Sequence record: SRR20825019_2740
Length of the DNA stretch: 64,000 nt
Direction: 5' to 3' (one strand)
A program made the position numbers and the translations under genes. Numbering within the stretch: position 1 is the first letter of the stretch; every line of letters starts with the position of its first letter. The notes below the pieces were generated by a model. That model had not been told where the DNA came from, did no database searches, and was given only the letters and a program-made list of their open reading frames with translations. This document shows positions 5,110 through 49,683 of this stretch, piece after piece.

Positions 5110-5111
5110 TG

Positions 5112-10612: not shown

Positions 10613-10624
10613 CAGGGGGAAGTG

Positions 10625-10660: not shown

Positions 10661-10743
10661 TATAAAAGTCTTTACATAAACTAAGAGAAGCTCTGCCTAT
10701 CTATCGCTTTGATTCACAGCACTTATCATCAGGGAAAACAAAC

Positions 10744-12033: not shown

Positions 12034-12049
12034 TGGCCCAAAATGTGCA
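12034..12049 (+). promoter_or_regulatory. Candidate sigma-54 (-24/-12) promoter of the PEP-CTERM gene
   Basis: TGGCCCAAAATGTGCA has GG-N10-GC spacing like the consensus TGGCAC-N5-TTGCW, about 80 bp upstream of the start codon. Confidence 0.55.
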
Positions 12050-12130
12050 GCATGGTTTACTACATTGGTTATTAGTTGTTAAATTCAATGTTGGCTACCA
12101 AAATGTCTACTACCAAAAAGGAAGGTGGTT

Positions 12131-12745: not shown

Positions 12746-12799
12746 GTTTGGAGTCAGCGTTTCAGATCAGTACAGTGCTCAACGAATCCCGGACAGTAT

Positions 12800-12940
12800 T
12801 TGTCGGCTGTAATAATCCACCAGGAATTCATCAACGCCTTTTTGATGTCTCTGGCAAATTTCGGTAGCAACCGAGGGCTGGTGTTTACTCGAACTTCAGC
12901 CTCGGGACAGTTGCTCCTTCGGTGCATTGTCCCGGCGGTT
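12800..12940 (-). pseudogene. Degenerate IS3-family transposase C-terminal fragment
   Basis: Manual minus-strand translation across two frameshifts and one stop: NRRDNAPKEQLSR / LKFE*TPALGCYRNLPET / QKGVDEFLVDYYSRQ, matching the IS3 OrfB pattern NCWDNAPME..F..LK.E....Y.........Y...YYN. Confidence 0.7.
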
Positions 12941-13106
12941 CGTCAAGCTCTCGACACGTCAAAGCGCAAGCGTATGGGCGTTGGCAAGGGGCAGAAAGGG
13001 ACGCCCGAAAAAAGTTAAAATTGACGGAGGTTTAGCAATCAGCATTCCCTTCTTATCCATCTTTAGATCCTATCAGGGCTGGAGTCCCGATAACCTTAAT
13101 CTAATT

Positions 13107-16905: not shown

Positions 16906-16980
16906 GTTCCTGTCTACTCTGTGTGTATTAAGCGAAAGATCGGCTTAATGATGAAAAAGGCATCACAAATGCTGTGGTGC

Positions 16981-19121: not shown

Positions 19122-19248
19122 GCCTTGGGCCTCCGTCGGCTTCGCCAATGGTTTTGGCTTGTTCGTCCATGTATAGTTTATCGCCATAGCGATTCTGCCA
19201 GTAGTGTGCAGAGATGTCATCCACAAGGGTTCACAGGGATTGGGAGCG

Positions 19249-20385: not shown

Positions 20386-20406
20386 TGGCCAATCGAGGTC
20401 TGTTCA

Positions 20407-21570: not shown

Positions 21571-21577
21571 TCACGCC

Positions 21578-23469: not shown

Positions 23470-24438
23470 CTAGAAACCAGTGGGCGGCTTGTATCCCCTG
23501 AGCCGCTTCTTCAAACCCACGAGCAATCTCCCCAGACCGAATTTAATGCCATCAAAAGGCGACTCACCAGGAAACCTCGGAGACACACCAAACCGCCGTA
23601 ACAGTCGATTCAGCGAATGGATATAGGCCTGCCTGCGGGTGGTTTTGGTATAGAAGACAATGCCAATAGAAACCGTTACGCCGTTATCCGGGGTTACCCA
23701 GGTATTCTCGGTACGTGTTGAGTGGGGCGAGGTGCTGGGGAAATAGACACCTTCTCCGGGGCCAAGGTCCCACTCGTGGCGAGCGTCCATGAACTCGTCC
23801 TTCAGGATGACGTCGTGAAGGGAGCCGTCGATGATGAAGCTTTCCACGGTATAGGCGGGGATGATGCCTCTGTCGTGGGAATCCCAGACGTTCATGATTT
23901 TACGGCCGTGTATCTGCAGCCAAAAGTTGTTCTCCCGGTCGATGTGAAAGGGCGTTACTGACGGAGGCGCGGAGATGAAAATGAACGCCTGCGGGCTGAA
24001 AATGCCAGGCTGCTCCCGATCAACCAGGTGCTCGACGGATGAGATAGCCTCGTTGACGAGACCGGCATACTGCGGGTCGGTTTCTGCATTGTACAAAGCC
24101 ACCCAGGAGCCGGGTTCCGAGATGTTTGCAAAGACGTCGGAAAGATCGCGCCCGTCCGGGCTTTCGGCGTGATGAATGAACTTGGAACTCTGCTTGGCAC
24201 CAGGGGCGATAAAGCGGCATTGTTTTGAGGGCAGCAGGCGGTGAGCCAATGCTTCCAGTTGATCAAGCTGGAGCAGAGGGTGTTCATAGAAGTTGTGCCC
24301 AAGGAGCGAGATGCTGTTCAGGGAAAAGTCCGTTTCGTCTTCAACCCAGACCTTGAACCTGCCCGTGGGTGCTGCAGGCTGATCGTTTTTCACTTGGTTT
24401 GCCGTTTCGGGAACGGCTATCTGTTCAGCTGTATCCAT
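23470..24438 (-). CDS. JmjC/cupin-like Fe(II)/2-oxoglutarate oxygenase
   Basis: PFHIDRE (HxD), QIHGRK and L-x-PGEGVYFP-x3-PH facial-triad pattern. Confidence 0.78.
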   Translation of the reverse strand: MDTAEQIAVPETANQVKNDQPAAPTGRFKVWVEDETDFSLNSISLLGHNFYEHPLLQLDQLEALAHRLLPSKQCRFIAPGAKQSSKFIHHAESPDGRDLSDVFANISEPGSWVALYNAETDPQYAGLVNEAISSVEHLVDREQPGIFSPQAFIFISAPPSVTPFHIDRENNFWLQIHGRKIMNVWDSHDRGIIPAYTVESFIIDGSLHDVILKDEFMDARHEWDLGPGEGVYFPSTSPHSTRTENTWVTPDNGVTVSIGIVFYTKTTRRQAYIHSLNRLLRRFGVSPRFPGESPFDGIKFGLGRLLVGLKKRLRGYKPPTGF

Positions 24439-24529
24439 GCTCGCCTGCTCCTACTCGGGATGGCGTAAAAAAATTATAGGTAGACCGCAGAAAGCCGTCA
24501 ATTGGACGGAACGCGGACCGAAGGGTTAC

Positions 24530-25351
24530 TCACTTCGGATCATTAACCGTGAAATAAAACCCGTGGTAGTGCTCTACGGTTTTCTCCAGATGGTAGGGGA
24601 TTTCTATCCGGCGCGGGTTTTTCCACCGGTCCACCAATCGGTACCCTGCCTTTTCCATGTCACTCACCAGGTTGGCTTGCGAGCTGATGTGATAGGGCAC
24701 TTCGCAGACTTCCAGGTATTGCAGTGTCCAGAAGTCTTCCGTCGGGTGGGCGGGCAGGTTGTGGACCAACACATGCTTGGGAAGCCGCTGGAGCTGGCTC
24801 ACGGTGTCGGCAATGTTGGTGTCCATGTATTGCAGTGTGCCTGCCGTCATGAAGATGTCTGCGGCGTCTTCCTCGCCCATGTCGTTACTGTCGATGAATG
24901 CGAGCCGTATTTCGTCTTTCTGGCTGGCGATTTTACGCCCGGCTTCGACGGCCGCCGGCAACTCTGCGATCACCCATTGGAGTCCGTCGGGGTACGAGAA
25001 GAAATTTTCGAAACTGTAGAACCCCTGGCCGATACTGCCGCCCAGTTCCAGTAGCCGTTGGGAAGGCTGCATCAGCCGGGAGAGCCAGAATAACAACGGG
25101 TAATCGATATCCAGCACCCGTTTGTCCAGTACTGGCAGCTCCTGCTCCAGATGTTCCCCCTTGTTTTGGTTGATGACGTCGTACTCGTTGGCCAACTGGC
25201 TGATGGCCTGCTGCTGGGCTTCGTGGAAGGAATCGTAAATGCCCCGGTAGGTAATGCCCAGCCGCTTCCTGGCCATGTGGAGGTAGAGGTCGTGACCATA
25301 GGGCAGCAGTTCGATGCTATTGATGATCCGGTTCTTCAAGGCTTTATTCAC
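24530..25351 (-). CDS. Putative SAM-dependent methyltransferase
   Basis: LLELGGSIG glycine-rich motif, W-x-I-x-ELP and GTLQY; AAAGGAG RBS before GTG. Confidence 0.72.
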   Translation of the reverse strand: MNKALKNRIINSIELLPYGHDLYLHMARKRLGITYRGIYDSFHEAQQQAISQLANEYDVINQNKGEHLEQELPVLDKRVLDIDYPLLFWLSRLMQPSQRLLELGGSIGQGFYSFENFFSYPDGLQWVIAELPAAVEAGRKIASQKDEIRLAFIDSNDMGEEDAADIFMTAGTLQYMDTNIADTVSQLQRLPKHVLVHNLPAHPTEDFWTLQYLEVCEVPYHISSQANLVSDMEKAGYRLVDRWKNPRRIEIPYHLEKTVEHYHGFYFTVNDPK

Positions 25352-25388
25352 TGTTGTCTCCTTTACGCAACGGATTGCGCCAGTGAGT

Positions 25389-27203
25389 CTATTCCGATGT
25401 TTTTATGGGCAATGCCACGGAGGACGGGGTGTCTCCACCAAAGTAAACCCTGTTGGTGGCGACAAACGTATCCGAATCGCTGTATTCGTCTTTTCCGGTG
25501 TTGAGGTTCCGCGCCAGGCGTGGAAAGTTGCTGCTTGAAATGTGGAACTCGAGCCGGTGTCCTTTCCGGAAGCGATAGGCAATGGGCCTCATTTCCAGTT
25601 CAACCCGATAGATGCGGCCCGGTTCGACGGGGCTTGGGTTGTCGATACCGTTCCGGTAACGCAGGCGGACGACGCCATCCTGGAGGTTAAAGGCCCTGCC
25701 ATCCGGGTACTGGTCGACCATCTTGACGGTAAAATCCGTATCCTGGGCGTTGGTCGACACGTAGAGGACAACGTTGGCATTGCCAACCAATTCCATGTCC
25801 TGCTCCAGTGGGTCACTTGCGTGAACCAACACATCCTGACGTGATTTCAGTGGCCTCTGGTCGAGCGGCCCGGGTTTATCTTCCGGCCTGTAAGTACAGC
25901 AGATTGGCCCGCCGAGGGTGGGGACGGGATCTAAAGGGTCGTAGGTAAACTGTTCATACAACGGGCCACTTTGCTCAGGGGCGCTGTTTAGGTCCGCCTC
26001 CTTTACCAGGCGATTGCCCGGCATGAAATAGTGGCGTTGGTCGCTGGCATCGGCAGGCGGCCACTGCTCAGAGGTATTCCATTCCCCGGAATGGATCGAG
26101 TAATACTCGAAATCGGGTGGCAGGTCCGTTGGTTCGTCTTTCAGCCAATAATCAAACCAGTCGATGTAGGTTTGCCGGAAATCTTTGCCGGCGTAATCAA
26201 ACGACATCTCACCAATGGTGACTTCCCCGGGCTTCAGTTTTCCGGCGCCGCAATGCACGCCTGGTGCGATCAGTACAGGCTGGGACTTCGCTCGGGGATG
26301 GCGGGCGTTCTCTGCCATGTGTTCGGCCAGCTTGAAGGTGTTATGGGCCGTTTGGTCGAACCAGTCGTTGATATGCAGTGTGGCCACCGAGAACTCGTCG
26401 TCCGGGTGGGTGTAGCCTTCTTCGTCCCACCAGTTGTCCGTTAAGGGGTGGCGAATAATGTCATCGAAGCCAGTTTCGTAGGGAACGATCTTGTCTGCAA
26501 TCCCGGAAACGGGCAGGTGGGTCATATAGGTACGCATTCGCTCTTCGTAATCGTCGGGGCGTGGCGTTACCTTGAAATCCTTTGCGCCCTCAGCGGTGAA
26601 CCACCCTAATGAAGAAGCCAGGTTCAACACGCCGTTTTCGAACACGCCAAAATAGCCAAACGTGTCCTTGACCTTGCCGGCGGCACCGCCGGCGCCGGAC
26701 GCAATCATGGCGATGTGATTCGGGTGGTTGGCCGCGGCAAGTATGATCTGGCTTTCACCCAGGTAGGAGCATCCAAATGTTCCGATTTTGCCGGTTGACC
26801 AGGGCTGTTCAACCAACCATTCGATGGTGTCGTAGCCGTCTTGCTTTGCAGTCAAGTAGGGGCTCTTGTAACGACCCTCTGAGTAAAATCGGCCACGGAC
26901 ATGTTGTACGATCACGGCGTAGTTGTGCCTGACGAAGTGCCGGACGGTGCTGAATTCGATGCCGCCATAGGTGGTGCGAATGTATATAACCGGATGGCGT
27001 TTGTTTCCAAGCGGCCGGTATACGTCTGTTGCAAGCTTCACACCGTCGCGCATGGGAACCATGACATTGCGGGCCCGTTGCATGTTTTCGCGCATGGGCA
27101 TGGTGACATCGCCCAGCCACAGCTTTACGTCGTCTGCGCGATAGCCGAGCACGGCAAGGATGGCGATCAGGATCAGCGAACTGGTGATCAGGACGAATTT
27201 CAT
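25389..27203 (-). CDS. CocE/NonD family hydrolase/acyltransferase with N-terminal signal or anchor
   Basis: VPMRDGVKLATDVY, RGRF-x-SEG, GCSYLG nucleophile motif and SSSNFPR; hydrophobic N-terminus. Confidence 0.9.
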   Translation of the reverse strand: MKFVLITSSLILIAILAVLGYRADDVKLWLGDVTMPMRENMQRARNVMVPMRDGVKLATDVYRPLGNKRHPVIYIRTTYGGIEFSTVRHFVRHNYAVIVQHVRGRFYSEGRYKSPYLTAKQDGYDTIEWLVEQPWSTGKIGTFGCSYLGESQIILAAANHPNHIAMIASGAGGAAGKVKDTFGYFGVFENGVLNLASSLGWFTAEGAKDFKVTPRPDDYEERMRTYMTHLPVSGIADKIVPYETGFDDIIRHPLTDNWWDEEGYTHPDDEFSVATLHINDWFDQTAHNTFKLAEHMAENARHPRAKSQPVLIAPGVHCGAGKLKPGEVTIGEMSFDYAGKDFRQTYIDWFDYWLKDEPTDLPPDFEYYSIHSGEWNTSEQWPPADASDQRHYFMPGNRLVKEADLNSAPEQSGPLYEQFTYDPLDPVPTLGGPICCTYRPEDKPGPLDQRPLKSRQDVLVHASDPLEQDMELVGNANVVLYVSTNAQDTDFTVKMVDQYPDGRAFNLQDGVVRLRYRNGIDNPSPVEPGRIYRVELEMRPIAYRFRKGHRLEFHISSSNFPRLARNLNTGKDEYSDSDTFVATNRVYFGGDTPSSVALPIKTSE

Positions 27204-28048
27204 TCCGGTTTCAGGGTCTTCAAGTGATCCAGTTGTTTATTGGCCCAGTCTGTAATGGTGCCGATCAGGCGTTGTCGGTGCACTTCGATGGAGAAGATGT
27301 GCTTGGCATTGGGCCAGAAGACTTCCTCGATAATGGGTTCAAGGCCTTTGATGTCCATGGCAGAGGCGAACTGGCCAAGCTTGTTGTAGTGGTAGAGGGT
27401 TTGGCTGGTAAACACGGCGAACACCCGGCCATCTTTTTCCACCAGGCTCTCGAAGCAACGGTCCATATCGTCTTCATTGGGCTCATCCCGCAAGTCCATG
27501 GGGGAGCTAAGCAGCGAGTGTTCACCGCTGGTGTTCTGTTTCAGCCTGCGGGAGACAATTTTATGGATATTCAACCACTTGTTAGGGTTTGTCAGCTTCC
27601 GGAGCAGTTCTCGCTTCGCGAAACCTTCGTCCTGCCGGGACACCGGGTCCAGAAGGATAAGCCCCTTGATGGATGGGTCCTGGGCGCAGAGTTTGATGCC
27701 GTTGTCGGCACCTGAACACAAACCGAAGATCAGCAGGGGCCTGGAGCCATAGAGCTTTTCGAGGGATTTCTTCATGAATGACCAGTCGAGGGCCACTGAT
27801 TCCCGGTTGGTCATGGTTTCGTGGGCTGGGGAGTCCCCCTTGCCAGACAGGTCCACCCGCAACGCGATATAACCCAGTTCCGCGAGTTGGCGGCCGAGCA
27901 GTACATTCAGCCGATAGGGCTCCGCCCGGTGGGACAGGCCGGCGTTCAGCAGCACCACAATGGGGCTGTTGAAGGTGTCTTCAGGCTCGGAGAGAACGCC
28001 AATGCCGTGCTGGTGTTCCCCATAGGTGAATATCCGTTCCTTGATCAT
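27200..28048 (-). CDS. Alpha/beta hydrolase fold protein (XrtA-associated hydrolase-1-like)
   Basis: LLNAG-x2-HR-x2-P-x-R, DLSG-x-GDS, GLCSGAD elbow, H-x-F near the C-terminus; ATG 28048 overlaps the upstream TGA. Confidence 0.78.
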   Translation of the reverse strand: MIKERIFTYGEHQHGIGVLSEPEDTFNSPIVVLLNAGLSHRAEPYRLNVLLGRQLAELGYIALRVDLSGKGDSPAHETMTNRESVALDWSFMKKSLEKLYGSRPLLIFGLCSGADNGIKLCAQDPSIKGLILLDPVSRQDEGFAKRELLRKLTNPNKWLNIHKIVSRRLKQNTSGEHSLLSSPMDLRDEPNEDDMDRCFESLVEKDGRVFAVFTSQTLYHYNKLGQFASAMDIKGLEPIIEEVFWPNAKHIFSIEVHRQRLIGTITDWANKQLDHLKTLKPE

Positions 28049-28788
28049 GCGAATACCCTGTCCAGTAATGCTTCGAGTACCGGTTTCTGGGTGATTACGC
28101 CGTCGTGGTAATACGGCCAATCGTAGCTGAGGCCGGGATAGGCGCAGTTGCTTAGTCCTGAGCTTTTGCAGAATTCCGGATCGGTTGAGACGGTGAAGCA
28201 CAGGTCGGGGTTGTTCAGGGTACTCTCGGGAATAGCCAGTTCGCGTATGCCGGTTACCAGCCCTGAGGGAAGGTCGAAGTTCCTGTACTCTATGTTTTCG
28301 AAGGGAACATTGTTCTCGCGTGCCGCTGACTGATGCCGCTTGCGCAGGATGGCATCGATCTCATTCAGCCACTCAACGTAGCGTTCTCCGGACAGCACTG
28401 GATCCCAGAAAAGGAATTCCTTTACGGATGCATGGTTAATTTGTGCCGCCAGTGTTGCACCAAACCGCACGCCCAATAACACCACATGGTTGGCACCGGA
28501 GACAGCGATGGCTTCATCAATCGCTTTTTGGATATCGGACAACCAGACTTCTATGGTTGCCTCCGACAACAGTCCCTGGGATTCTGCTGTTCCGTAGTAG
28601 TCGAAGCGAAACGCATGATTCCCGCGCTCGGAAATGGCCACGGACAATTCCGACAAGGCCCGGTAAGTGCGCCGGTACTCGTCAAAAAGCGGTGGGCACA
28701 CAACCACGACTTTTTCTGCATTGGGGTCCGTCGCAGACGAATAGCAGCCGAACAGGCGGCTGTTATCAAAGAAAAAAGGTTCTATCAT
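28045..28788 (-). CDS. Alpha/beta hydrolase fold protein (XrtA-associated hydrolase-2-like)
   Basis: CPP-x2-DE-x2-R, FDYYGT-x-ES-x-G, GVRFGA elbow and WDPV-x-SG-x2-Y. Confidence 0.78.
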   Translation of the reverse strand: MIEPFFFDNSRLFGCYSSATDPNAEKVVVVCPPLFDEYRRTYRALSELSVAISERGNHAFRFDYYGTAESQGLLSEATIEVWLSDIQKAIDEAIAVSGANHVVLLGVRFGATLAAQINHASVKEFLFWDPVLSGERYVEWLNEIDAILRKRHQSAARENNVPFENIEYRNFDLPSGLVTGIRELAIPESTLNNPDLCFTVSTDPEFCKSSGLSNCAYPGLSYDWPYYHDGVITQKPVLEALLDRVFA

Positions 28789-28804
28789 TGCCCGTTACTT
28801 CCCG

Positions 28805-31800
28805 TCATGACTGAAACAGCTTCCTCCAGAACGGCTTCTTGGCGACCGGTGTTTTTGACTGGCTTGGTTCTGAGGGCACCTCATTGATAAGTCTTTCAAG
28901 GTCCGCAACAAGTCCGGCAAAGGTCTCCTTGAGCGACTGTACCGTCTCTGAATCAACAGAAGCCTCGTTGTAGTCAAACACGCCAATGAAACCACCAGGC
29001 TGGATCCGCACCCAGTACTCCACCGGGTATTCGGTGTTCAGCCGGGGCAGGTCCAGTTGCCTGAGCGCCAGGTCGGCAATGGAGGTTGGCCGGTTGCGGA
29101 TGTCCTGAAAAGCAAAGCTGGCCTGGACAAACTCCGGAAACAGCTCCCTCTCGGCAGGCGTGTTACGGACGATATCAGCGTAGGTCACCGTCTGATGGTC
29201 CAGTGTTTCCCTGAGTTGGTCGCTCAGGCTGGCAATGCGCTCCCGGAAGCTGGACGATGGCGCCTGAAGCAAACAGGGAATGGTGGTCACAAAGCTACCA
29301 ATCAGGTTGATCACGTCGGCGCGTTGACGGCCGGACGTGGGCACGCCAAGCACAATACGGTTGTCTTTGTGCGACCGGGAGATGGTCTCCGCGAACAGGC
29401 AGAACAGGATCTCGTGAAGTTTGAGCCCGAGTTCATTACCCACCTTTTCCACCATCGCCAGGCTTGCTTCCGGGAAGTTCAGGGTCTCCCGGGCACATTG
29501 GTTGGGTTTGCCGTAGTTCTCGTTCTCGCGGGCCTCGGATTCCAGGACGCCGGCAATCTTGGCCCTGTGGTAATCGACATCCTCTGTCGACGCACCTTTT
29601 TCAATTGACCACTCAGCGTAATCCCGGAACTCGAACGCCAGTTTGTTGGCTTTTTCCCGTTCCGTATTGCTTTGTACCAGATAGGCGTCCTCCAGTTCCT
29701 TGAGGAAGATATCAAACGACCAGCCATCGAAGACCAGTTGATGTGGCACGAACACGTAGTGGTAGCGGGCATCGCCCAGCACAAACAGCGTGGAGCGGAA
29801 CAGCGGCCGGTCGAGCACCTTGAAGGGTTTGAACGCCAGGTCCCGTGAGCGTTTCAGCGCCGTTTGCTCGGGGTTATCCTCGCCGGTTAGGTCCACAACA
29901 TCGAGTACGGGGACCTGCTTCACTGGCAGGATGCCTTGCTGGTAGCGGCTATCCACCTGGGTAATGACCGTTCGCAGCGCGGTCTGGCGCTCGAAAACCT
30001 TGATCAGGCTACGGGTGAACGTATCAATATCAAGGTTGCCTTCGAGGAACCAGGACGCGGGCAGGTTGTTACACACGTTGTCCGGGTAGGACAGCTGCCG
30101 CAGCAGCAGCCGGGTCTGTTCATGGCTCAGCAAGCGCCGCTGGGCCGTGGGCAGATCCGCCGGTGAGTCTTCGTGCCCGGCGGAGGCCGGCGTGCTGTGG
30201 GAGACTTTCTCGGCGATTTCACTCAGGCTGAGCCCGACGATGTCTTCCGGGGTCAGTTTGATGCCGGTCTGGCTCTCTATCCTGCGGATGGCCTGCAGCG
30301 CGAGCAATGAGTGCCCGCCCAGGCTGAAGAAGTTGTCCTCGCGTACAATCCGGGACTTGGAATTGAGTACGTCGGACCAGACATCGGCAATCATCTCTTC
30401 GGTCTGGTTTGCCAAGGCGGAGGCCTTGAGAATACTGGACTCTCGAAGTTCCGGTTTGGGCAGGCGCCGCCGGTCCATCTTGCCGCTAGGGCTCAGGGGT
30501 ATGCTATCGATGGCAATGATGTATTGAGGGATCATGTACGCTGGTAGCAGTTTTCGAAGTTCCTTGCGGATGCTCACCACATTGGGCACGTCTCCGGATT
30601 CCGAAACCACACAGCCAACGATGCGTGCGTCGCCCGGTGCCAGTTCCCAGACATACGCGCAGGCGGATTTAATGTCAGCGCAGGCGGCGAGGGCGGACTC
30701 AATATCACCCAATTCAATGCGGTAGCCGCGAACCTTCACCTGATCGTCCATGCGGCCCAGATGCTGAAGGTTGCCATCGGGAGTCCATTTCGCCAGATCT
30801 CCGGTGGCATACAGCCTTCCGTGGAGGGGATGGTCAATGTACTTCTCTGAGGTGAGATCGGGCCGATTGTGGTAGCCCGTTGCCAGCCCAAGGCCGCCGA
30901 TGTACAGCTCGCCAGGGCAGGACAGGGGCACCGGATTGCGTTCCCGGTCAAGAATGTGCACCTGGGTATTGTGGATAGGTTTGCCGATGGAGATCAGTTT
31001 GTCGGTCAGGCGCAATGGGTGGCAAGTGGACCAGACGGTGGTTTCCGTCGGACCATACATATTCCACAGTTCGTCCAGGCACCCGAGCAGATCCCGCACC
31101 AGATCCTGGGGCAGTGGTTCCCCGCCACAGAGCCCCTTCATCCTGACCCCATCCTGCCGCCAGTCGGTATCCAGCAGCATGCGCCAGGTTGCCGGGGTTG
31201 CCTGCATGATTGATATCTGGTGATCGAGAATCAGCCGGCGCAGTTTTTCACCGTCCTTTACGCTGTCCTTGTCGGCGATCACGGTTGTGGCGCCCTGAGT
31301 CAGGGGTAACAAAAGCTCCAGGAAGGAGATGTCGAAGGAGAAGGTGGTGACCGCCAGAAGCCGGTCATTGGCTGTGCAACCGGGTTTGTCCGACATGCTC
31401 TCAAGAAAGTTAATCAGAGCCCGGTGAGGAACCAGCACGCCCTTGGGTTTTCCGGTGGAGCCGGAGGTGTAGATAATATAGGCCGTTTGCTCCGGGTCGA
31501 TTCTTACCGGTGGCACGGGGGACGCTTCGGCTGACGCCGGTTCAATTGCCTCATTGATATCGACTTTGAGGAGGTTCACGCCGGCGATGGCCGCAGGCGT
31601 CTGTGAGTCGACGATGACAGCGGAAGCTTCCGAGTCCTCAATCATGTACTGCAATCGAGCCTCCGGAAAGTCCGGGTCCAGGGGCAGGTAAATCGCACCC
31701 AGCTTGAGGATGCCGACAATAGCGGCCAGGGCAGCGTCCGAGCGCTCGACACAGACCGCCACCGTGTTGCCGGCCGCAATACCTTGGTTGGCAAGGCTGG

Positions 31801-36300: not shown

Positions 36301-39300
36301 GGCGGCGAATTCGCCAATGCTGTGCCCGATCAGAAACGAGGGCGCAACGCCATGCTCTTTCAGGTAGTTTGCCAGTCCGAATTCGAGCAGGAACAGGGCC
36401 GGTTGCACGAAGGAAGTCTGGTTGACCAGATTGTCATCGGCGTTCTGGTCGCCTTCGGCGAACAGGATGCCGCGTATGTCCACCCCACTGGTTTTCAGTA
36501 CGATCTTGCAACCGCGATCAAAGGTCTCCCGATAAGAGCTGGCGTTCTCATACAGCCACTTGCCCATATGTCTGGCCTGGGTACCCTGGCCAGAGAACAT
36601 AAAACCGACACTCTGGTTGGGGTTGTTACCAGCCTGGCCCTTGGCGAAGGATACACCCTGGCCGAGATTCTCCATGGCGGAGGGCAGGTCACCGCCGAAC
36701 ACGATCGCCCGATGATCGAAGTGCTTGCGACCGTGGATCGAGGTATGGGACACATTCGGCAGCAGGGCATCCTTCCGGTTGCTGAAGTAGTCGCAATACC
36801 GGGCGATTTGTCGCTCCAGTGAGGGCTTGCTCTTGGCCGATAGCAGTATCGGGAAACGGCGCTCTGGAGTGATCTCTTTAGGCAGCTCGGGCGCCTGTCC
36901 GGGAACGTATTCCTCCAGGATGACGTGGGCATTGGTACCGCCCACACCAAGAGAGGTAACCGCCGCCCGGCGGGGGGAGGGCAACTTCCAGGCCTCCACT
37001 GCCGTATTGACATAGAAATGGGACTTCTCCAGCTCCAGCTTCGGGTTTGCGGTCTGGAAAAACAATGTGGGCGGTATCTTGTTGTCACGGACGGCCAGAG
37101 TGGATTTAATCAGGCTAGCCAGGCCGGCGGCATGGATGGCGTGCCCGATGTTGGATTTAACAGAACCGATCGCGCAGGTTTTCTCCCGGGTATTCTCTGA
37201 GGAATAACAGCGCCTCAGTGACAACACTTCAATGGGGTCGCCCAGGGGCGTCGCAGTGCCGTGGGTTTCTATGAAACCCACGGAGGAAGGTTCGATGGCA
37301 GCGCGGGCAAGGGCATCCTTATAAACAGCCACTTGGCCGGCCACACTGGGTGCGGTGAAGCTGGCCTTCTGTTCGCCGTCGTTATTTACTGCATAGCCTT
37401 TGATGACGGCGTAGATAGTGTCGCCATCCCGTTCCGCCAGGTCTCGACGTTTCAGGACGATGGCGCCGGCACCGTCGTTGAACGTGGTTCCCGTGGCGTC
37501 CTGGTCGAAAGGCCTGCAATGGCCGTCTTTCGAGAGCATGCTGCCTTCCTGGTAGGCGTACCCGCGCTTCACTGGCGTTGAGATGGACACACCTGCGGCG
37601 ATGGCTTGCTCACATTGGCCGTTGTCGATCGCTTCACAGGCCTGTGCCACTGCGACGAGTCCCGTGGAACACGCCGTAAAGACATTGATGCTTGGGCCCT
37701 TCAGGTTCAACTTATAGGAGATGCGGGTGCTCAGCAGGTCGGGCTCGTTGGCGAGGCCACAGTTGAGAACACCGTAGCTATCAATAATCTCCTTATTTGG
37801 CAGAACATACTGCTGGTAATAACGAGCCCAGTTCATACCAGCGAACACGCCGGTGCGGTATTGGGCATCGCCCGGAGGAATGCCGGCGTCCTCAAGGGCG
37901 TGCCAGCTCAGTTCCAGGAGAATACGCTGCTGCGGATCCATCACCCGGGCTTCTATCGGTGAGATACCAAAGAACTTGGCGTCAAAGCGGTCGTAACCCT
38001 CGACAATACCCTTGGCTTTTACATACGCGGGATTGGAACGTTCTTCTGCACTGACGTCGGGGCTCAGTTCGTCATCGGTAAAGAAACTGACGGTTTCCTT
38101 GCCCGCAAGTAGGTTCTGCCAGTATTCATCCAGATTGTTGGCGCCGGGAAAGCGGCAGGCCATGCCAATGATGGCAAACTCGTTGTTGTTCCTGTCGCCG
38201 CGCCGCGCCGATGCTTCAGTGTCGTCAGCATTGGAACGGGTTGCAAAGAAATTCGCTTGCTGCTGGATCGTCGGGTGCTCGAACACAAACGTGGCACTGA
38301 GCTCAACCTCAAAGGTGCGTTCCAGCAGGGTTGCCAGTTTCAGGGCTTCTAGTGAGGTGCCGCCGGCATCCATGAAGTTGTCGGTATCTTCGACCGGGCG
38401 GTTCAGTATGGTGTTCCAGCTTTCCTGGATGCGGTCCTTGGTGACTCTGGAGGCCTGTGGGGCGTCTTTTGGCGCCGTAGCGTATGGGTCCGGAAGGCGG
38501 GCTTCATCCAGTTTGCCGTTCTTGTTCTTCGGCAATTCGGACACCTGGACAATAAAGTGTGGAATCATGTAGGCCGGGACAACCTCAGCCAACGCCTGGC
38601 GGACGGATTGTGTGCTGAAGCCCGATTCCGACACCAGGTAGGCGGCGAGTCGTTTCTGTCCTTGTGGTCCAATTCGAACAATGACCCGAGCCTCTGTGAC
38701 GAACTCAAGGTTGTTCAATTGGTACTCGATTTCACCTGGCTCGATGCGGTGCCCGTCGATTTTAACCTGCTTATCTATTCTGCCTAAATAATCGTAGCTA
38801 CCATCGTCGTTGAGTTGCGCCAGATCGCCTGTCCTGTAGCCGGTTCGCGACCGGCCGTCTTTGGCTTTCACCTGAATGAACTTCTCAGCGGTCAATTCCG
38901 GCCTGTTGAGGTAACCCAGTGCGAGGCCATCGCCGAAGGCAATGAGTTCACCGGTCTGATCTGGACCCTCTAGAATGTTCAGCTCTGAATCGACAAGAGC
39001 ACATTGGGTACCGGGAATGGGAAACCCAATAGGAATTCGCTTGATATCTTCCGGCAGCGGCCTGGGTATCGGGAATACGGTGGTAAACGTTGTATTCTCG
39101 GTGGGCCCATAGCCGTTGAACAGGGCAGTGTTGGGCAGGTGTTCGAGTGCTTTCCTCACATGTGGCACTGAAAGCGCTTCGCCTCCTGTCAATAACTGTT
39201 TAACAGGCTTGAGGTAGTCAGGGTATTCGGCGATGAACGTGTTAAACAGCGAGGCAGTAAGCCATAGAGTGCTGACATCACGCTCCAGGATAACGTCCCG

Positions 39301-39996
39301 GATGCAGTTGGGTGTCAGTACGCCGGTCTCTGGGTGTAGTACGCAGGTGCCACCATTGAGCAGGGGGCCCCAGAGTTCCAACGTGGAAGCATCGAAACTC
39401 AGGGCTGATAACTGAAGGAACGTCTGCTCTGGTGAAAATGATATGAAATCGGTGCTGGTGACCAGCCGAAGTATTGCGCGGTCGGGTACCACCACACCCT
39501 TAGGCTCTCCGGTCGAGCCGGAGGTAAACATGACATAGGCTGGCCGCTCGCTGTTTTCAGGGATATCCGGTATTTCCACGTTACTTTGCGGGGAATTACG
39601 GGTATTTATCCATGAAATATCAAGGTGATTAAGTAAATCAGATCCAGGAGCATTAATTCCAAACTTTGCAGATACAGCTTCAGTGATGAAATGTTGACGT
39701 TCTTTTGGGTAATTAGCGTCAATAAATACGTAATGAGCGCCACAAAAAAGTATACCCAATAAGTTGGCGCATAAGTCGGGGTGTCTTTCTGACGGAAGTA
39801 TGACCGAAGAGCCTTCTTCTACACCTGCTCTTGCCAACTCGCTGGCAATCCTCCGGGCTTTGTCGAATAATTCGGTATAGGTGAGTTTCTTCCAGGTCTG
39901 ATTGTCTCGCCACGCTACGGCGGTGCGACCGGGGTGGTGCTGAGCGACTTCAATAAAACGGGCGATGACGGTTTGTTGGCTACTGCTGGCGGTCAT
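33307..39996 (-). CDS. Hybrid NRPS/type I PKS, A(Val)-T-KS-AT-ACP-class III aminotransferase
   Basis: A domain FTSGSTGEPKG; T domain GGTSL; KS DPQQR, TACS, HGTAT, KSNIGH; AT GHSIGE and HAFHS; ACP GLDSL; aminotransferase DEVVTGFR and YGKVVGGG; ATG 39996 after AGGA. Confidence 0.93.
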   Translation of the reverse strand: MTASSSQQTVIARFIEVAQHHPGRTAVAWRDNQTWKKLTYTELFDKARRIASELARAGVEEGSSVILPSERHPDLCANLLGILFCGAHYVFIDANYPKERQHFITEAVSAKFGINAPGSDLLNHLDISWINTRNSPQSNVEIPDIPENSERPAYVMFTSGSTGEPKGVVVPDRAILRLVTSTDFISFSPEQTFLQLSALSFDASTLELWGPLLNGGTCVLHPETGVLTPNCIRDVILERDVSTLWLTASLFNTFIAEYPDYLKPVKQLLTGGEALSVPHVRKALEHLPNTALFNGYGPTENTTFTTVFPIPRPLPEDIKRIPIGFPIPGTQCALVDSELNILEGPDQTGELIAFGDGLALGYLNRPELTAEKFIQVKAKDGRSRTGYRTGDLAQLNDDGSYDYLGRIDKQVKIDGHRIEPGEIEYQLNNLEFVTEARVIVRIGPQGQKRLAAYLVSESGFSTQSVRQALAEVVPAYMIPHFIVQVSELPKNKNGKLDEARLPDPYATAPKDAPQASRVTKDRIQESWNTILNRPVEDTDNFMDAGGTSLEALKLATLLERTFEVELSATFVFEHPTIQQQANFFATRSNADDTEASARRGDRNNNEFAIIGMACRFPGANNLDEYWQNLLAGKETVSFFTDDELSPDVSAEERSNPAYVKAKGIVEGYDRFDAKFFGISPIEARVMDPQQRILLELSWHALEDAGIPPGDAQYRTGVFAGMNWARYYQQYVLPNKEIIDSYGVLNCGLANEPDLLSTRISYKLNLKGPSINVFTACSTGLVAVAQACEAIDNGQCEQAIAAGVSISTPVKRGYAYQEGSMLSKDGHCRPFDQDATGTTFNDGAGAIVLKRRDLAERDGDTIYAVIKGYAVNNDGEQKASFTAPSVAGQVAVYKDALARAAIEPSSVGFIETHGTATPLGDPIEVLSLRRCYSSENTREKTCAIGSVKSNIGHAIHAAGLASLIKSTLAVRDNKIPPTLFFQTANPKLELEKSHFYVNTAVEAWKLPSPRRAAVTSLGVGGTNAHVILEEYVPGQAPELPKEITPERRFPILLSAKSKPSLERQIARYCDYFSNRKDALLPNVSHTSIHGRKHFDHRAIVFGGDLPSAMENLGQGVSFAKGQAGNNPNQSVGFMFSGQGTQARHMGKWLYENASSYRETFDRGCKIVLKTSGVDIRGILFAEGDQNADDNLVNQTSFVQPALFLLEFGLANYLKEHGVAPSFLIGHSIGEFAAAALAGIFSFEDAVALVATRGALMQSMPAGKMLIVRSNPDDIEELVGQRAEVAAVNAPGLMVLSGEQEAIKAISAELSERKIASTILQTSHAFHSSMMDPIVPEFEAFVSTIQRQAPSIPIYSTMTGALLTDEEAMSPRYWSQQLRNPVLFSSALQALSLRHENDGERISLLEVGPGNTLVNLANSHRELEGIHAYPALTNKGTDENAEDDIYRSIGQLWVDGHALDWNRYFEGLWVCKERLPGYAFSDDSFWLGPVNNDPANMTNSVAPSTAAASQLSHLANPATPVTQDVKMDSKQHSEKIRADVMAIIEDVSGYELGDADPASHFSEVGLDSLLLTQVATALERQFKLGITFRHLVEEYTSLELISEFIASQVEPEVVTQAAPPSQEAAGQPQPADGSQMSMPSGVDFSTAMPTSGGLIQDIVNAQLQIMQMQLQALGRQGASTAQSVPQTQQAAASTPAPAAAANKERASANESADDTPSKPAHTPGTRITREKTNTEVTSAQREWIDRLMTKYQEKYAGSKSYTQKHRKHLADPRSVSGFNPGWKEVIFPIVTVESKGSKLWDIDGNELIDTSNGFGPILFGHSPDFISNAAKAQIDRGVETGPQSPLAGEVAELFCELTGNERCTFACTGSEANVGALRVARTVTGRTKVVAFEGSYHGIHDEVVMRVGKDHKALPAAPGVPREATSNMILLPWGEQSSLDEIRKLGDEIAAVLVEPVQSRKPQFHSKEYIQEIRRITKENGVALILDEVVTGFRVGPGGIRKRFDVDADMMTYGKVVGGGYPIGIIAGKAKYLDAMDGGYWEFGDDSIPEQGVTFFAGTFVRHPLALAVAKAVLTKIKEDGDSIYPALEEKTTAMAREAKAFIEQLKSNVSFEEFASLFYISIPPTSHWGHLLFLSMTLDGIHIQQYRPNFLTTQHSTEDVKKILQAFKSALANLIVNGLLEGDQVAAKKYLSGNSSIPAGARLGKNEKGEPAYFIEDPDNKGAYVEVGRP

Positions 39997-40205
39997 GACA
40001 AAACGTCCTGTTTGACAATCGTACCTATAAGATCCAATGAAGTGGCGCTGCAGCTTTTTTTTAAAACCCTTGGACATAAATGTCGATGGCTTTTAGGCTT
40101 TGCTATCCTTCATCATTAAAAAAATATAACAGTCTTTCTTTTCGATTGAAATGGAATTTGAAACAGCTTTCAGTTTCTAGTTAACCCTGATGCCGGTGGA
40201 AATGT

Positions 40206-40847
40206 ATGAGTAAGGACACCTTGTTTCCAAACATCGTTAAAAAACGTTGTTTACGACCTCTGAAGCAATGGATTCTCCGCTTGATTGAGATAAAGTCCGG
40301 TATCTTTCTCTCGCAGCACGTTGTCGATGGGGCGTTATCGAGGAATGCAAGCTCTATCGCGCCGGCCCGCATTGTTGAGGCTGACGGAACAGAACCCGGG
40401 TTGCCGGTGTCTGATCAGGAGTTTCTGCGTCGCACCCGCCAGGGTAATCGACTTTTCCAGATGCATGTTGATAACCAACTGGTTTCCTGGGGCTGGGTAG
40501 CTGGGCCGGGCACCTGCATTGGCATTTTACACGACCTTTATCTGACCGTTCCCGATAGGGCGTTCTACATTTGGGACTGCGCTACCATTCCCGAGTGTCG
40601 TGGCCTAGGGTACTTCCAGATGTTGCTTGATGGGATCTTGAGCGTGCATCGCTCTACCTCGACCCTGGCACTCGTGGCGGTTGATACTCACAACGGCGCA
40701 TCCAGGAAGGCTCTGGGCAAGGCGGGCTTCCGGTTCGGATTTACCTACATCAGTGTCCGAACGCTTGGTTTGGGATTGTTCAGTGTTGCGTTCAAGGGGT
40801 GGAGAGTGAGTAGGGCACAGCCCTGGTTTGATCACGTAGGACGTTAG
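40206..40847 (+). CDS. GNAT-family N-acetyltransferase-like protein
   Basis: YIWDCAT-x-PECRGLG acetyl-CoA motif and N-x-ASRKAL-x-KAGF. Confidence 0.75.
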   Translation: MSKDTLFPNIVKKRCLRPLKQWILRLIEIKSGIFLSQHVVDGALSRNASSIAPARIVEADGTEPGLPVSDQEFLRRTRQGNRLFQMHVDNQLVSWGWVAGPGTCIGILHDLYLTVPDRAFYIWDCATIPECRGLGYFQMLLDGILSVHRSTSTLALVAVDTHNGASRKALGKAGFRFGFTYISVRTLGLGLFSVAFKGWRVSRAQPWFDHVGR

Positions 40848-41024
40848 TTCTCCCGCAATCGATCAGGTTGGACCAGTCTGTTGACAGTGCACATGGTAGT
40901 GCTTGCAGCTTTATTGCCCATGGAATATGGTAATTTTGTAATCAGGGAATTAGTAGAAGCAGGGTCCACCTTAACTAGCGCGATTCATGCGGGGCGTTGT
41001 GGATTGTTGAAACAGGAAGTCGCG

Positions 41025-41882
41025 ATGAGTTTATTTGATCTTTCCGGGCCGGAATCCATAAAAACCATTCCCTTTCCCACTGAACAGGACGGATTGCTTC
41101 CTTATATCCGTCGTCGTCAGCCTTTGTTGTTGAGTGGCATCGAGGAGTCTTTGCCGTTCATCCGGGACTGGAACTACGATTTTTTCAGAGAATCGCTTAA
41201 ATCCATTCGGATACAGCGACAGTCAGAAGACGGCATCTACCATTATCTGGGCTTCGAGCGCATCCCCATGGCGGATTTTGATGAGGTGATGCGCACAACC
41301 GGGAATGGCTATGCGCTTGAGCCGCTGAAAGGTCGCGGTGTTTCCGAGGACCTGCCAAACAGTGTTGCGGTCACGTTGCCGGCGTTCGTGCCTGAATCCC
41401 GTTTTCGGGTCTCGAATCTGTACATTGGGCCCGGGAAAAATAAATCGCTGTTGCACTATGACGAAACCCACAGCCTTCTGATGATGTTGGAAGGGCGCAA
41501 ACGATTCATTCTCTTTGCGCCGGATCAAAGCGATTGCATGTATCCATACAGCCCATTCAGTTTGCGGGCATTGTTGGAGAATCGGGTGGTGGACAGCAAG
41601 ATCGACTGCCAGAAGCTGGACCTGGAGGCATTCCCGAAATTGGGCAATGCAAAGGGCATTACCGGCTGGCTGGAAGAAGGGCAGGCACTTTTTATTCCCG
41701 CCGGCACCTGGCATTTCATTGAAGCGGAAGGTCGCAACGTGTCGGTCAACTACTTTTGGCTGCAGAACCGTGTCAGGCACTGGTTACAACAACCACTGCT
41801 TGATTTCTGGCTGAAACGGCGCGCCATTGATGTGCTGGACCAGCTTCGCAAGGTTAAACACAAGTTGTCTGCAGCCGCTTAG
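41025..41882 (+). CDS. Cupin-8/JmjC Fe(II)/2OG oxygenase
   Basis: LHYD, GRKRF-x-LF-x-P and G-x-ALFIP-x-G-x-WH motifs; ATG 41025 after AGGAAG. Confidence 0.85.
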   Translation: MSLFDLSGPESIKTIPFPTEQDGLLPYIRRRQPLLLSGIEESLPFIRDWNYDFFRESLKSIRIQRQSEDGIYHYLGFERIPMADFDEVMRTTGNGYALEPLKGRGVSEDLPNSVAVTLPAFVPESRFRVSNLYIGPGKNKSLLHYDETHSLLMMLEGRKRFILFAPDQSDCMYPYSPFSLRALLENRVVDSKIDCQKLDLEAFPKLGNAKGITGWLEEGQALFIPAGTWHFIEAEGRNVSVNYFWLQNRVRHWLQQPLLDFWLKRRAIDVLDQLRKVKHKLSAAA

Positions 41883-41896
41883 GAAACACGAATACT

Positions 41897-43033
41897 GTGG
41901 AACTAAGAGTTATCAGAACGGAGGAGGCATTCAACCAGATCAGACCACAATGGGACGAGTTGCTGTCGACTCTGGACCCTATTCCTCTACCATTGACTCA
42001 TGCTTGGCTGCAGGCTTGGTGGCGCGCCTTTTCGATCAATATGCAGTTGGAGTTCCGGTGTGTCTATATCGAGGGAGCCTTGGTCGGGGTTGCGCCACTT
42101 TTTCGGGTTCGTGAGCGTTATCGGGGAGTTCCGGTAACACTCCTGAAGCTTGCGGCCAACGGTCACACCCCCTATTCGTCCATCGTCGTTGATTCAGCGG
42201 TGATTGGTCGGGAAAGGGACGCAGTGTTGGGGTTGCTGACAAAGGTAGGTTGTGACGAAATCGGCCTCTTCTTCAAGATACACCAGAGCGGTGACCTGAA
42301 GCGCTTTCTGCAGGACCGCTCGATACCCGGGCACAATCGGGTCGGTGAAAAACCCAGCCTTTACACGCCTGTTATTCGCATTGACCAACCGTGGGAGGCC
42401 TTTTACCGGTCCCGGCCGAGGAAGTTGAAGAAAAGCCTCAACCATAAACTGAACCGGTTTGGAAAGAATGCCGCCTTTTCCATCCATGAAGAGACTATTT
42501 CAAGCCCCGATCAGGACACCGTCCGTGAGTTGGTAGAGATCTCCGCCAACAGCTGGAAGGCGACTGTTGGCAATGATTTGCGCTCGAATGAACGAAGTCG
42601 CCGGTTTCTGCACAATCTGATCGAATCGTTTGGGCCTACCGGTTTGTTGTCGGCCTGGATCATTCGCGATGGAGAGCGCCCGGTGGCGTTCGAAGTTCAC
42701 CTCAAGTACGACGACATTGTTTATCCCATACGTGCTGATTTTGACGAGTCTTATAAAGCCTATTCACCGGGCTCTGTTCTTGAGTACACGGCACTGAAGA
42801 GACTATTTGAGAACGGGTTGGTAAAAGAGTACTACACCTGTGCGGACGACTACTGGTATCTGAGTAACTGGACATCAGAGTACCAGTCATATTGCACCGT
42901 TGAGCTTTTTGGAAGTAGCCCAAAACTTCATCTGTTGTACCTGCTCGAATACCGACTCATACCCGTATTAAAGCGTTTTCTGGGGAAACGCGCCAAACAA
43001 CGCCGCCGTCCCGACGGACTGAAAGGAGAGTGA
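41897..43033 (+). CDS. GNAT-family acyltransferase (CelD/BcsL-like)
   Basis: W-x2-L, W-x2-AWW, GVAPL, SWK and YSPG-x-VL motifs. Confidence 0.8.
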   Translation: MELRVIRTEEAFNQIRPQWDELLSTLDPIPLPLTHAWLQAWWRAFSINMQLEFRCVYIEGALVGVAPLFRVRERYRGVPVTLLKLAANGHTPYSSIVVDSAVIGRERDAVLGLLTKVGCDEIGLFFKIHQSGDLKRFLQDRSIPGHNRVGEKPSLYTPVIRIDQPWEAFYRSRPRKLKKSLNHKLNRFGKNAAFSIHEETISSPDQDTVRELVEISANSWKATVGNDLRSNERSRRFLHNLIESFGPTGLLSAWIIRDGERPVAFEVHLKYDDIVYPIRADFDESYKAYSPGSVLEYTALKRLFENGLVKEYYTCADDYWYLSNWTSEYQSYCTVELFGSSPKLHLLYLLEYRLIPVLKRFLGKRAKQRRRPDGLKGE

Positions 43034-43037
43034 ATCA

Positions 43038-43925
43038 ATGAGGACGCTGGTGATTGTCAGTCCTGACAAGTCGGATATCTATTTTGCCAATCAGCTGGCC
43101 AAGGCCCTGAACGTAGTGGGTGTTGTTGTTGAAAATCAGACACCGGAGAAAGATCGCTCTTCGCTGGCTACCAAAGCCATAAAGTACCTGTCTACGCCCG
43201 GTCAGTTCTTTCGCAAGGTTCTGGAGGTTATGGACGGGCGGTTTATTGAGCCGCGCCAGCCCTACAACGATCCAGCGAATTCACTGGACTTTGGCGAAGA
43301 GGAACGTGTTCTGAAGGTGGGAGAGGGTGTCGAAATACTCCGCACCCAAGGGGTGAATGCGATTAATAACCCTGAATACCTGGCCTGGATTCGAGACCGG
43401 CGGCCTGATGTGATTGCCGTTTGTGGTGCCTCAATTTTAAGGGCGGATCTGCTTGCGATTCCGAAATATGGCGTCCTCAACCTGCATGGGGGGCTCTCCC
43501 AGTTCTACCGTGGTCTGTTTACGACAGACTGGGCGATACACAATCGCGAGCCGGAGTGTGTTGGGGCCACTGTGCATTTTGTATCTGAGGGGGTTGATGA
43601 TGGCGATGTGGTATACCAGGGCCGGCCACACATCGAAGAAGGTGATCACCCTAACAGCCTATATGAAAAAGTGGTCCGCCTCGGAGTGCAAATGATGGTG
43701 CGTGCGGTCTCGGATATCGAGCAGTCCCGATGCCCGAGAACCAAGCTTGAATCGAAGGGGGATCTTTACCTTCACAATATGTTCCATGTCGCGGCCAAGC
43801 GCACCACCTGGCGCCAGATTGAAACAGGCGCGATTACGGATTATCTGACCAATCAGATCGAGCGTGACCAGAAGGTGAAGGGGGCGCTCATCAACGAGTT
43901 CAGTACTCCAAAGGAAACGAGTTAA
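43038..43925 (+). CDS. Formyltransferase (N10-formyl-THF dependent)
   Basis: LNLHGG-x4-YRG, GATVH and GVDDG catalytic motifs. Confidence 0.85.
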   Translation: MRTLVIVSPDKSDIYFANQLAKALNVVGVVVENQTPEKDRSSLATKAIKYLSTPGQFFRKVLEVMDGRFIEPRQPYNDPANSLDFGEEERVLKVGEGVEILRTQGVNAINNPEYLAWIRDRRPDVIAVCGASILRADLLAIPKYGVLNLHGGLSQFYRGLFTTDWAIHNREPECVGATVHFVSEGVDDGDVVYQGRPHIEEGDHPNSLYEKVVRLGVQMMVRAVSDIEQSRCPRTKLESKGDLYLHNMFHVAAKRTTWRQIETGAITDYLTNQIERDQKVKGALINEFSTPKETS

Positions 43926-45430: not shown

Positions 45431-45439
45431 AAGTTCCTT

Positions 45440-48136: not shown

Positions 48137-48188
48137 GGCCCTGGTCCTTTTCCTTATCGGGTCTTGTTCTGGATTCCTTGCCTGCTAT

Positions 48189-49562: not shown

Positions 49563-49683
49563 AACGGTTACAAATCCCTTTTTGTAATGGTGACGGTCTT
49601 GCGATCAATCCTCTAAACCCTGATTCTTAACCGAAGATTGACACTTTGCAATGATAGTGTTCGCTGTATTTCGGTTTCGCCAA

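Follow-up and report, generated by a model that had tools for sequence, protein, structure and literature searches.

An NRPS-PKS cassette with a hydrolase pair in a Marinobacter glycan locus: a candidate module for acylation of a surface polysaccharide

Teichoic acid is D-alanylated by the Dlt system and lipid A is glycylated by AlmEFG. Among assembly lines, modules of the MycA and McyE type form a beta-amino acid and are followed by a nonribosomal peptide synthetase (NRPS) module. The nucleophile of the aminoacyltransferases SyrC and CmaE is a Cys, and in the thiopeptidoglycan of bacterial sheaths Gly is amide-linked to galactosamine. SyrC and CmaE shuttle carrier-bound units and the cyclase NcmC has a Cys-Asp-His triad (PMC10956176). 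The extracellular glycoconjugate of Leptothrix contains N-acetyl-L-cysteinylglycine (bioRxiv 10.1101/157073). In Burkholderia, the exopolysaccharide (EPS) cluster Bcam1330-1341 includes the TIGR03100-like Bcam1334, which has a predicted role and an acyltransferase as neighbour (PMC3584217), and the related becA-R cluster contains an acyl-CoA dehydrogenase gene (PMC5507470). In this study, a cassette was analysed that encodes a polyketide synthase (PKS) hybrid, an NRPS and a pair of alpha/beta-hydrolases, HYD1 and HYD2, in a 64-kb stretch of sequence record SRR20825019_2740 (the window), which judged by its sequence is Marinobacter DNA. A protein named from M. salarius matches its PKS at 100% identity.

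The cassette consists of seven genes in a row on the minus strand, in the order PKS hybrid, NRPS, HYD2, HYD1, CocE, methyltransferase and JmjC. An earlier note on this DNA had given the same run and order, with three ATGA overlaps at 33307-33310, 28045-28048 and 27200-27203, all of which proved correct when the sequence was re-read. On balance, we consider it probable that the HYD1/HYD2 pair hands a diaminoacyl-glycyl unit over to a polysaccharide precursor and that the cassette is an optional module of a Wzx/Wzy-type EPS pathway.

The assembly line and its hydrolase pair

Pfam and NCBIfam profile scans were run on 47 of the 126 window open reading frames (ORFs) of at least 100 aa. The PKS hybrid probably starts at the ATG at 39996 (2229 aa, equal to the length of database protein P0001), the longest ORF extending to 40077. 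Its active-site motifs TACS, HGTAT, KSNIGH, GHSIG, HAFHS, GLDSL and YGK are intact, and HAFHS is presumed to indicate malonyl specificity. The nearest solved structure to the aminotransferase domain is MycA (E 1e-118), and the order KS-AT-ACP-aminotransferase with a C domain behind it is that of a MycA/McyE-type beta-amino-acid module. Read by motif anchoring, the two A-domain pockets are DALWLGGTF and DILQLGMVW, which we take to be Val-type and Gly-type codes. PA1221 and the modules of DhbF and AB3403 ranked high among the solved A-domain matches. Pfam revealed no fatty-acyl loading domain in the line, and the expected chain is 3,4-diamino-5-methylhexanoyl-glycyl-S-T.

A cis release domain, either a C-terminal thioesterase or a reductase, is absent from the line. 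The terminal condensation domain (C*) reads HQLVFDG, and the catalytic second His of HHxxxDG is lost in 13 of 13 aligned orthologues (Gln in 12, Ala in one), which makes chain release by C* unlikely; this candidate was therefore disfavoured. C* ends (28805-28850) in a conserved basic-aromatic tail with consensus KKPxWRRLF, in which W, L and F are invariant in all 13 sequences; the tail is a candidate docking or membrane-binding helix. No thioesterase domain, ABC or MFS exporter, TonB receptor or phosphopantetheinyl transferase was detected among the 47 scanned ORFs, and the statement in the earlier note that the window holds no thioesterase, exporter, resistance gene or TonB receptor is upheld for this set. 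The short-chain dehydrogenase/reductase at 51878-52825 scored 31.9 bits against a thioester-reductase model with a cut-off of 213 bits, and relatives without the cassette have it as well.

The overlapping ATG at 28048 is the start of HYD1 (282 aa). Its C111 and H250 show no variation across alignments of 59 and 38 sequences and D134 is invariant or nearly so; in HYD2, R108 at the nucleophile position is invariant across 44 aligned sequences. A fold model of HYD1 gave an alpha/beta-hydrolase (pLDDT 89.7), so that the predicted fold, the Cys nucleophile and the conserved His and Asp agree with the sequence features of SyrC/CmaE-type enzymes. No close solved relative of HYD1 was found, the best one reaching 21% identity and a TM of about 0.57, and its Atlas matches were generic hydrolase clusters only. 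A modelled HYD1-HYD2 heterodimer scored 0.91 against 0.00 for the best control, with at least 86% of contacts shared between runs and a partner pLDDT of at least 89. The mark used for such models was reached by 51 of 78 solved pairs and by 2 of 108 mismatched pairs, and the model supports, though it does not prove, binding of HYD1 and HYD2 as a heterodimer. The scores of HYD1 against TIGR03100 (66 bits, cut-off 168.45) and of HYD2 against TIGR03101 (80.4 bits, cut-off 202.75) lie below the cut-offs, and by score the pair is thus no member of those families.

In a metagenome scan, the best 80 of 207 HYD1 matches were kept, and 52 loci of at least 4 kb were examined (49 metagenome loci and three others). 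The pair adjoins NRPS or PKS genes in 47 of them; in the other five the contig ends at most 900 bases upstream of HYD1. Most of the adjoining lines end in C-A-T with neither a thioesterase motif nor C*, the latter being present in all 13 aligned type I lines. HYD2 is fused to the NRPS C-terminus, at the position of a thioesterase, in L100, L102, L104, L110 and G447; L101 shows such a fusion in a fragment at a contig edge. The earlier note had described the line as thioesterase-less; this description is misleading as regards a release device, since the pair takes the place of one and these six related proteins have HYD2 fused at this point. By hand count, 39 of 42 readable lines have a Gly-type A domain as the final one ahead of the pair, 37 of them exact (near-matches L061 and G787; exceptions L084, L094 and L100; duplicates L014 and L016 dropped). 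The modules further upstream differ from line to line; Ser-type pockets (code DVWHFSLVDK, as in PMC8313283) occur among them, and some lines lack a KS altogether. The pair is read as an off-loading device for an X-glycyl chain. More tentatively, and with rather less confidence than we place in the transfer proposed for the Marinobacter cassette, HYD1/HYD2, as a heterodimer of a pseudo-enzyme and a Cys enzyme, might be a widespread, undescribed termination device that grafts X-glycyl side chains made by NRPS/PKS lines onto Wzx/Wzy polysaccharides.

Proteins of about 600 aa in which HYD2 and HYD1 are joined were repeatedly seen together with DUF1839, an acyl-CoA dehydrogenase and a GH2-like protein (loci L149, L152, L153, L015, L059, L067, L102 and L110). 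L149 also encodes an amino acid-[carrier protein] ligase (PRK07080), and L150 a stand-alone A domain and a small ORF. Parts of this fused system adjoin the NRPS cassette in several loci. A search for HYD1 on plasmids gave no match at E 1e-12.

Position in the glycan locus and distribution in Marinobacter

The cassette lies between Wzx/Wzy glycan genes and xrtA-prsTRK, as the earlier note had it, with the refinement that a plus-strand block (40206-43925) separates the PKS from xrtA (Table 1). The glycan locus encodes FemAB and GNAT proteins, GT4 and GT2 glycosyltransferases, two polysaccharide deacetylases, two ATP-grasp ligases, Wzb, a Wzy-type protein, the Wzx flippase (13107-14555), a pyruvyltransferase, a DegT aminotransferase and one PEP-CTERM protein. 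With all four profiles over their cut-offs, the genes beyond the block form an exosortase A/PrsKRT locus.

Table 1. Features identified in the window, with positions, strand and the basis of each assignment.
Feature	Position	Strand	Basis
PKS hybrid, A-T-KS-AT-ACP-aminotransferase	33307..39996	-	Pfam domains, active-site motifs, A pocket DALWLGGTF(K)
NRPS, C-A-T-C*	28805..33310	-	Pfam; A pocket DILQLGMVW(K); first C HHIVCDG, last C HQLVFDG
HYD2, alpha/beta-hydrolase, Arg at nucleophile position (GVRFG), presumed docking subunit	28045..28788	-	NCBIfam, motif, fusions in relatives
HYD1, alpha/beta-hydrolase, Cys nucleophile elbow (GLCSG), presumed peptidyl transferase	27200..28048	-	Conservation, fold and heterodimer models
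CocE/NonD-family hydrolase, hydrophobic N-terminus	25389..27203	-	TIGR00976 over cut-off; GCSY motif
TIGR04325 methyltransferase	24530..25351	-	229.5 bits, cut-off 80
JmjC oxygenase	23470..24438	-	PF08007, E 7e-6
GNAT acetyltransferase, variable member of divergent block	40206..40847	+	Weak PF00583
Cupin_8/JmjC oxygenase, divergent block	40881..41882	+	Pfam
PF13480 GNAT acyltransferase, divergent block	41897..43033	+	Pfam
Formyltransferase, divergent block	43038..43925	+	Pfam
xrtA, prsT, prsR, prsK	43931..51816	-	TIGR03109, TIGR02917, TIGR02915, TIGR02916, each over cut-off
Wzx/Wzy glycan locus, candidate acceptor pathway	2..23128		Pfam and NCBIfam

A survey of 191 Marinobacter genomes yielded NRPS matches at E 1e-150 in 25 (five of these at 71-94%), HYD1 profile matches in 22 and the flanking GT2 orthologue in 45. 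In 21 of the 22 carriers, HYD1 was located 3-12 kb from the GT2 orthologue on one contig; the single carrier that departs from this is an assembly of 82% completeness. The cassette was found between DegT and xrtA in all seven carriers with enough context, an eighth contig being too short. Four of the seven are of the type seen in the window; the other three represent a second type, in which the NRPS has two modules and the PKS is only 37-39% identical. That two divergent versions occupy one slot of the glycan locus supports, by context, a role in a surface glycan. Orthologues are carried by the cultured strains M. algicola DG893 and M. sediminum R65. In G003, of the second type, a phosphopantetheinyl transferase-like gene precedes the cassette and a membrane acyltransferase (PF01757) follows HYD1.

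Of the 24 genomes that are GT2-positive and HYD1-negative, 20 were examined at this locus. All span GT2 to xrtA and none contains the NRPS, PKS, hydrolase pair or divergent block, although small stand-alone ACPs may have been missed; the intact loci indicate that the cassette is optional. The divergent block travels with it (6/7 carriers against 0/20 cassette-free loci): the Cupin_8/JmjC and PF13480 genes are each present in six of seven carriers, and the variable GNAT gene in three of the seven with this side sequenced. The earlier note had suggested that the megasynthase replaces the stand-alone ACP and ligase of other exosortase loci. No such swap was found: TIGR03100 was over cut-off in 0/191 genomes of the genus and TIGR03098 in none of the 47 scanned ORFs, and the pair follows modular NRPS genes and not the stand-alone ligase of the TIGR03098-03101 small carrier system.

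The nearest genome, G001, is about 100% identical to the window in prsK, prsT and recR and has a different glycan locus after prsT (C1:3163000-3185000), without the cassette, resembling a serotype-like exchange; assembly errors are the probable cause of splits in its ORFs for dnaX, prsR and aldose epimerase. Among the relatives, HYD1 is in two pieces in G185 (C1:432882-433702), and in G083 (C1:2515588-2522144) the hybrid PKS is split into an A-T gene and a gene from KS onward. G171 has two transposase genes at the place of JmjC (C1:2761783-2764029) and lacks the divergent block, with the pair kept. The slot of the cassette-free locus L195 (5341-8476) holds a homologue of macrolide-type glycosyltransferases and a THxN PEP-CTERM gene.

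Within the glycan locus, G+C drops to 0.41-0.48 at 6001-15000 compared to about 0.55 around it, over the Wzy-type, GT2, ligase, PEP-CTERM and wzx genes, which suggests a separately acquired piece. The region 2-10612 is rich in amide- and ester-forming enzymes (FemAB, PF13480 GNAT, two ATP-grasp proteins and an F390-synthetase-like ligase), so the glycan may bear several substituents. Most loci, whether they contain the cassette or not, retain the lipoprotein-like gene that lies at 21578-23128 in the window and encodes golvesin domains and TSP3 repeats. Coverage by contigs of four RNA-library runs (three studies) was of low depth and reached 15-27 of 30 bins; this is not proof of transcription.

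Glycan context outside the genus and rival explanations

Neighbouring genes were labelled by Pfam for 112 of 142 cluster representatives, and then for 62 of 101 unlabelled proteins and 12 others. Context was tallied by BLAST against 14 glycan-marker classes in 83 loci, of which 34 have at least 5 kb outside the cassette genes. At least one marker class was present in 23 of these 34 loci and at least two in 17; without eight Marinobacter-like loci, the numbers are 15/26 and 10/26. Control stretches of 20 kb, 40 in number and taken at fixed positions in 12 of the genomes, had at least one class in 5/40 and two or more in 0/40. An even sample of the phylum gave matches in 12 of 401 genomes, with glycan markers beside four of the five strong matches and none beside that of G869. 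Among 400 genomes of the class, eight aminotransferase-domain matches were found, two of them with the pair (G243, glycan-linked, and G447, not so). Glycan genes adjoin one of six aminotransferase-type PKS/NRPS lines without the pair. In G544 (C8:108813-134000), a 3757-aa NRPS-PKS that has an aminotransferase but lacks the hydrolase pair is neighboured by wzx, WcaJ-like and GT4 genes and may be an alternative way of achieving the same.

Several observations weigh against transfer to a polysaccharide. HYD1 is missing from 24 of the 45 GT2-positive genomes, and the glycan is consequently made without the cassette in these. No glycan marker was found in 11 of the 26 non-Marinobacter loci (four of the 11, L053-L056, are near-duplicates), nor in G869 and G447 over 40 kb. 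The closest Val/aminotransferase types outside the genus are split about evenly: L015, L057, L060 and L061 have at least one glycan-type gene; L051, L053-56, L059/L067 and G869 have none. Related loci do not count independently, flanking sequences are short, and the tally is biased toward these loci over the controls since the marker classes were built partly from them. Variable glycan islands can also gather unrelated cargo, and no chemistry, mutant or structure was found for any member. The earlier note had held that its proposal would fall if homologous clusters occurred mostly away from polysaccharide genes; this is partly the case, with several close orthologues away from such genes and others beside them. 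Its broader proposal of an acyl unit for a surface glycan is favoured by context, namely the same slot used twice and the enrichment of markers over controls, and loses its parts on a PEP-CTERM target, on the exchange of carrier systems and on a missing release device. In L053-L056, four near-identical loci, the NRPS is in fragments and integrase genes are present.

The product could instead be a diffusible small molecule, such as free diaminoacyl-glycine, a lactam or, should the line bypass transamination, a tetramic acid, with HYD1 as hydrolase or cyclase and the glycan island as a mere, recombination-prone residence. We consider this unlikely, though a serious contender. Orthologous cassettes do occur among housekeeping or transport genes (G869, G447, L051 and L059/L067), and the oxygenases, methyltransferase and formyltransferase resemble natural-product tailoring enzymes. 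Furthermore, Cys-Asp-His alpha/beta-hydrolases can serve as Dieckmann cyclases in PKS-NRPS lines (PMC10956176), and a Collimonas antifungal is tied to a PKS-NRPS with KS-AT-aminotransferase and a polysaccharide pyruvyltransferase gene (PMC8313283). The substrate of a Dieckmann cyclase, however, is a beta-ketoacyl-aminoacyl thioester, of which the aminotransferase should here remove the keto group, and the pair is also found at the end of lines that lack a KS and cannot form a tetramate. The scanned ORFs include no exporter, receptor or resistance gene, two divergent versions hold the one glycan-locus slot, and a fixed terminal Gly with variable upstream chemistry would suit a linker better than a pharmacophore.

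It is improbable, in our estimate, that the acyl-glycyl unit goes to a lipid or protein (an aminolipid, a glycolipid or PEP-CTERM glycoproteins) and not to the polysaccharide chain. Such an acceptor would account for the cassettes without glycan neighbours and would fit the proximity of xrtA-prsTRK and a PEP-CTERM gene; the title of a 2011 paper by Craig et al. reportedly ties N-acyl amino acid synthases to the PEP-CTERM/exosortase system. The missing fatty-acyl loading domain speaks against it, as does the lack of any xrtA match in the tallied non-Marinobacter flanks (10-20 kb), where Wzx, Wzy and glycosyltransferases recur. The PrsR regulon is marked by a TGT-N11-ACA box and a sigma-54 promoter, and no candidate for either was found upstream of the PKS in 39997-40205. 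A box-like match at 11800-11816 is located upstream of the PEP-CTERM gene, with motif counts over the window at chance level (9 versus 11.6 and 7 versus 11.0). The absence of xrtA from those flanks and of a PrsR-type site makes the exosortase link look incidental to the position of the Marinobacter glycan locus, and the PEP-CTERM glycoproteins proposed as a target by the earlier note lose their footing. Least probable is a scheme in which C* or the PF13480 GNAT carries out the transfer and HYD1/HYD2 edits mis-loaded carriers like a type II thioesterase. All 13 aligned type I lines retain C*, the PF13480 gene accompanies the cassette in six of seven relatives, and HfsK, a GNAT, has been proposed to acylate the amines of deacetylated holdfast EPS in Caulobacter (PMC5362036). 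Nevertheless, C* lacks its catalytic His in each of the 13, most other lines end in T without C*, G171 retains the pair without the GNAT block, and HYD2 is fused at the terminal position in relatives.

Proposed transfer and comparison with known systems

For the transfer onto a polysaccharide by HYD1/HYD2, the following route is proposed; its substrates, transfer chemistry and acceptor are inferred and its heterodimer is modelled, while the anatomy, conservation, position and co-occurrence of the genes are observed. The PKS hybrid would load Val, perform one malonyl extension and transaminate the beta-keto group to give 3,4-diamino-5-methylhexanoyl-S-ACP, to which the NRPS would add Gly. The His-less C* would act as a scaffold without catalysis. 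The HYD2/HYD1 heterodimer would then take the acyl-glycyl chain from T2 onto Cys111, and HYD1 would pass it to a sugar amine or hydroxyl of an NDP-sugar or lipid-linked repeat, either directly or via a membrane or PF13480 acyltransferase. Free sugar amines could derive from the DegT aminotransferase or the deacetylases, and the formyltransferase, JmjC oxygenases, methyltransferase and CocE may tailor or edit the unit. Unmodified, it would add C9H17N3O2 (calculated, about 199.13 Da).

If this is true, a Val- and Gly-derived cationic side chain of about +199 Da is predicted on Marinobacter EPS, with possible effects on adhesion, emulsification, metal binding or phage recognition. A function would be assigned to the exosortase-associated hydrolase pair, which has long been hypothetical, assembly lines would gain a new way of termination, and many clusters counted as small-molecule pathways would be reassigned, their products being polymer-bound and invisible in extracts. 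Should the pair be a general termination device, a considerable number of orphan NRPS-PKS clusters would serve to tailor polysaccharides with exchangeable chemistry, and sheaths that bear peptides, e.g. the Cys-Gly thiopeptidoglycan, might arise likewise.

No description of this cassette or of an NRPS-made EPS side chain was found in the literature searched, which excluded most subscription papers and all supplements. An NRPS/PKS origin of the lipooligosaccharide (LOS-IV) substituent of M. marinum was not confirmed by PMC12507525, which names only a pyrrolidone-substituted sugar. The thiopeptidoglycan of Sphaerotilus and Leptothrix sheaths, an extracellular glycoconjugate, would match the terminal-Gly linker proposed here. 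Genes for its peptide side chain are not given in the accessible sections of PMC11087309, PMC11412304 and PMC8264430, and no Cys-type A domain was found in 224 loci by one exact motif, a weak test that says nothing about the sheath formers. In the family of G953, 0/296 scored at E 1e-35, which is uninformative as the G953 centre itself failed this threshold.

With the TIGR03100/TIGR03101 pair and TIGR03098 ligase, hypothetical equivalogs of NCBIfam whose function is only predicted (TIGR03100 is named in one of the papers searched), the cassette shares its best NCBIfam matches, the adjacent pair and the xrtA glycan locus; it differs in scores below both cut-offs and in a modular NRPS-PKS where those have a stand-alone ligase. 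The PF01757 acyltransferase after HYD1 in G003 parallels the acyltransferase beside Bcam1334. The carenaemin cpl cluster of Collimonas arenae Cal35 likewise combines a PKS-NRPS containing KS-AT-aminotransferase with a polysaccharide-type gene (PMC8313283), but its line is larger and its product diffusible. Compared to the MycA (mycosubtilin)/McyE-type KS-(AT)-ACP-aminotransferase modules, the aminotransferase type and the NRPS module afterwards are the same, whereas the starter is an amino-acid A-T and not a fatty acid, there is one further module and a cis thioesterase is lacking. SyrC, CmaE and NcmC-type Dieckmann cyclases are also alpha/beta-hydrolases acting on carrier-bound chains, a likeness to HYD1 in its predicted fold and residues; HYD1 is set apart by its dead partner subunit, its end-of-line position and its link to a glycan locus. 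Dlt and AlmEFG likewise decorate a surface glycoconjugate by means of an A domain, a carrier protein and a transferase, but they deliver single amino acids or diglycine from stand-alone carriers, in contrast to the modular line with KS and aminotransferase and the other transferase fold found here. By analogy, the cassette would work like a carrier-based glycan acylation system, with an open chance that it represents a new class of termination.

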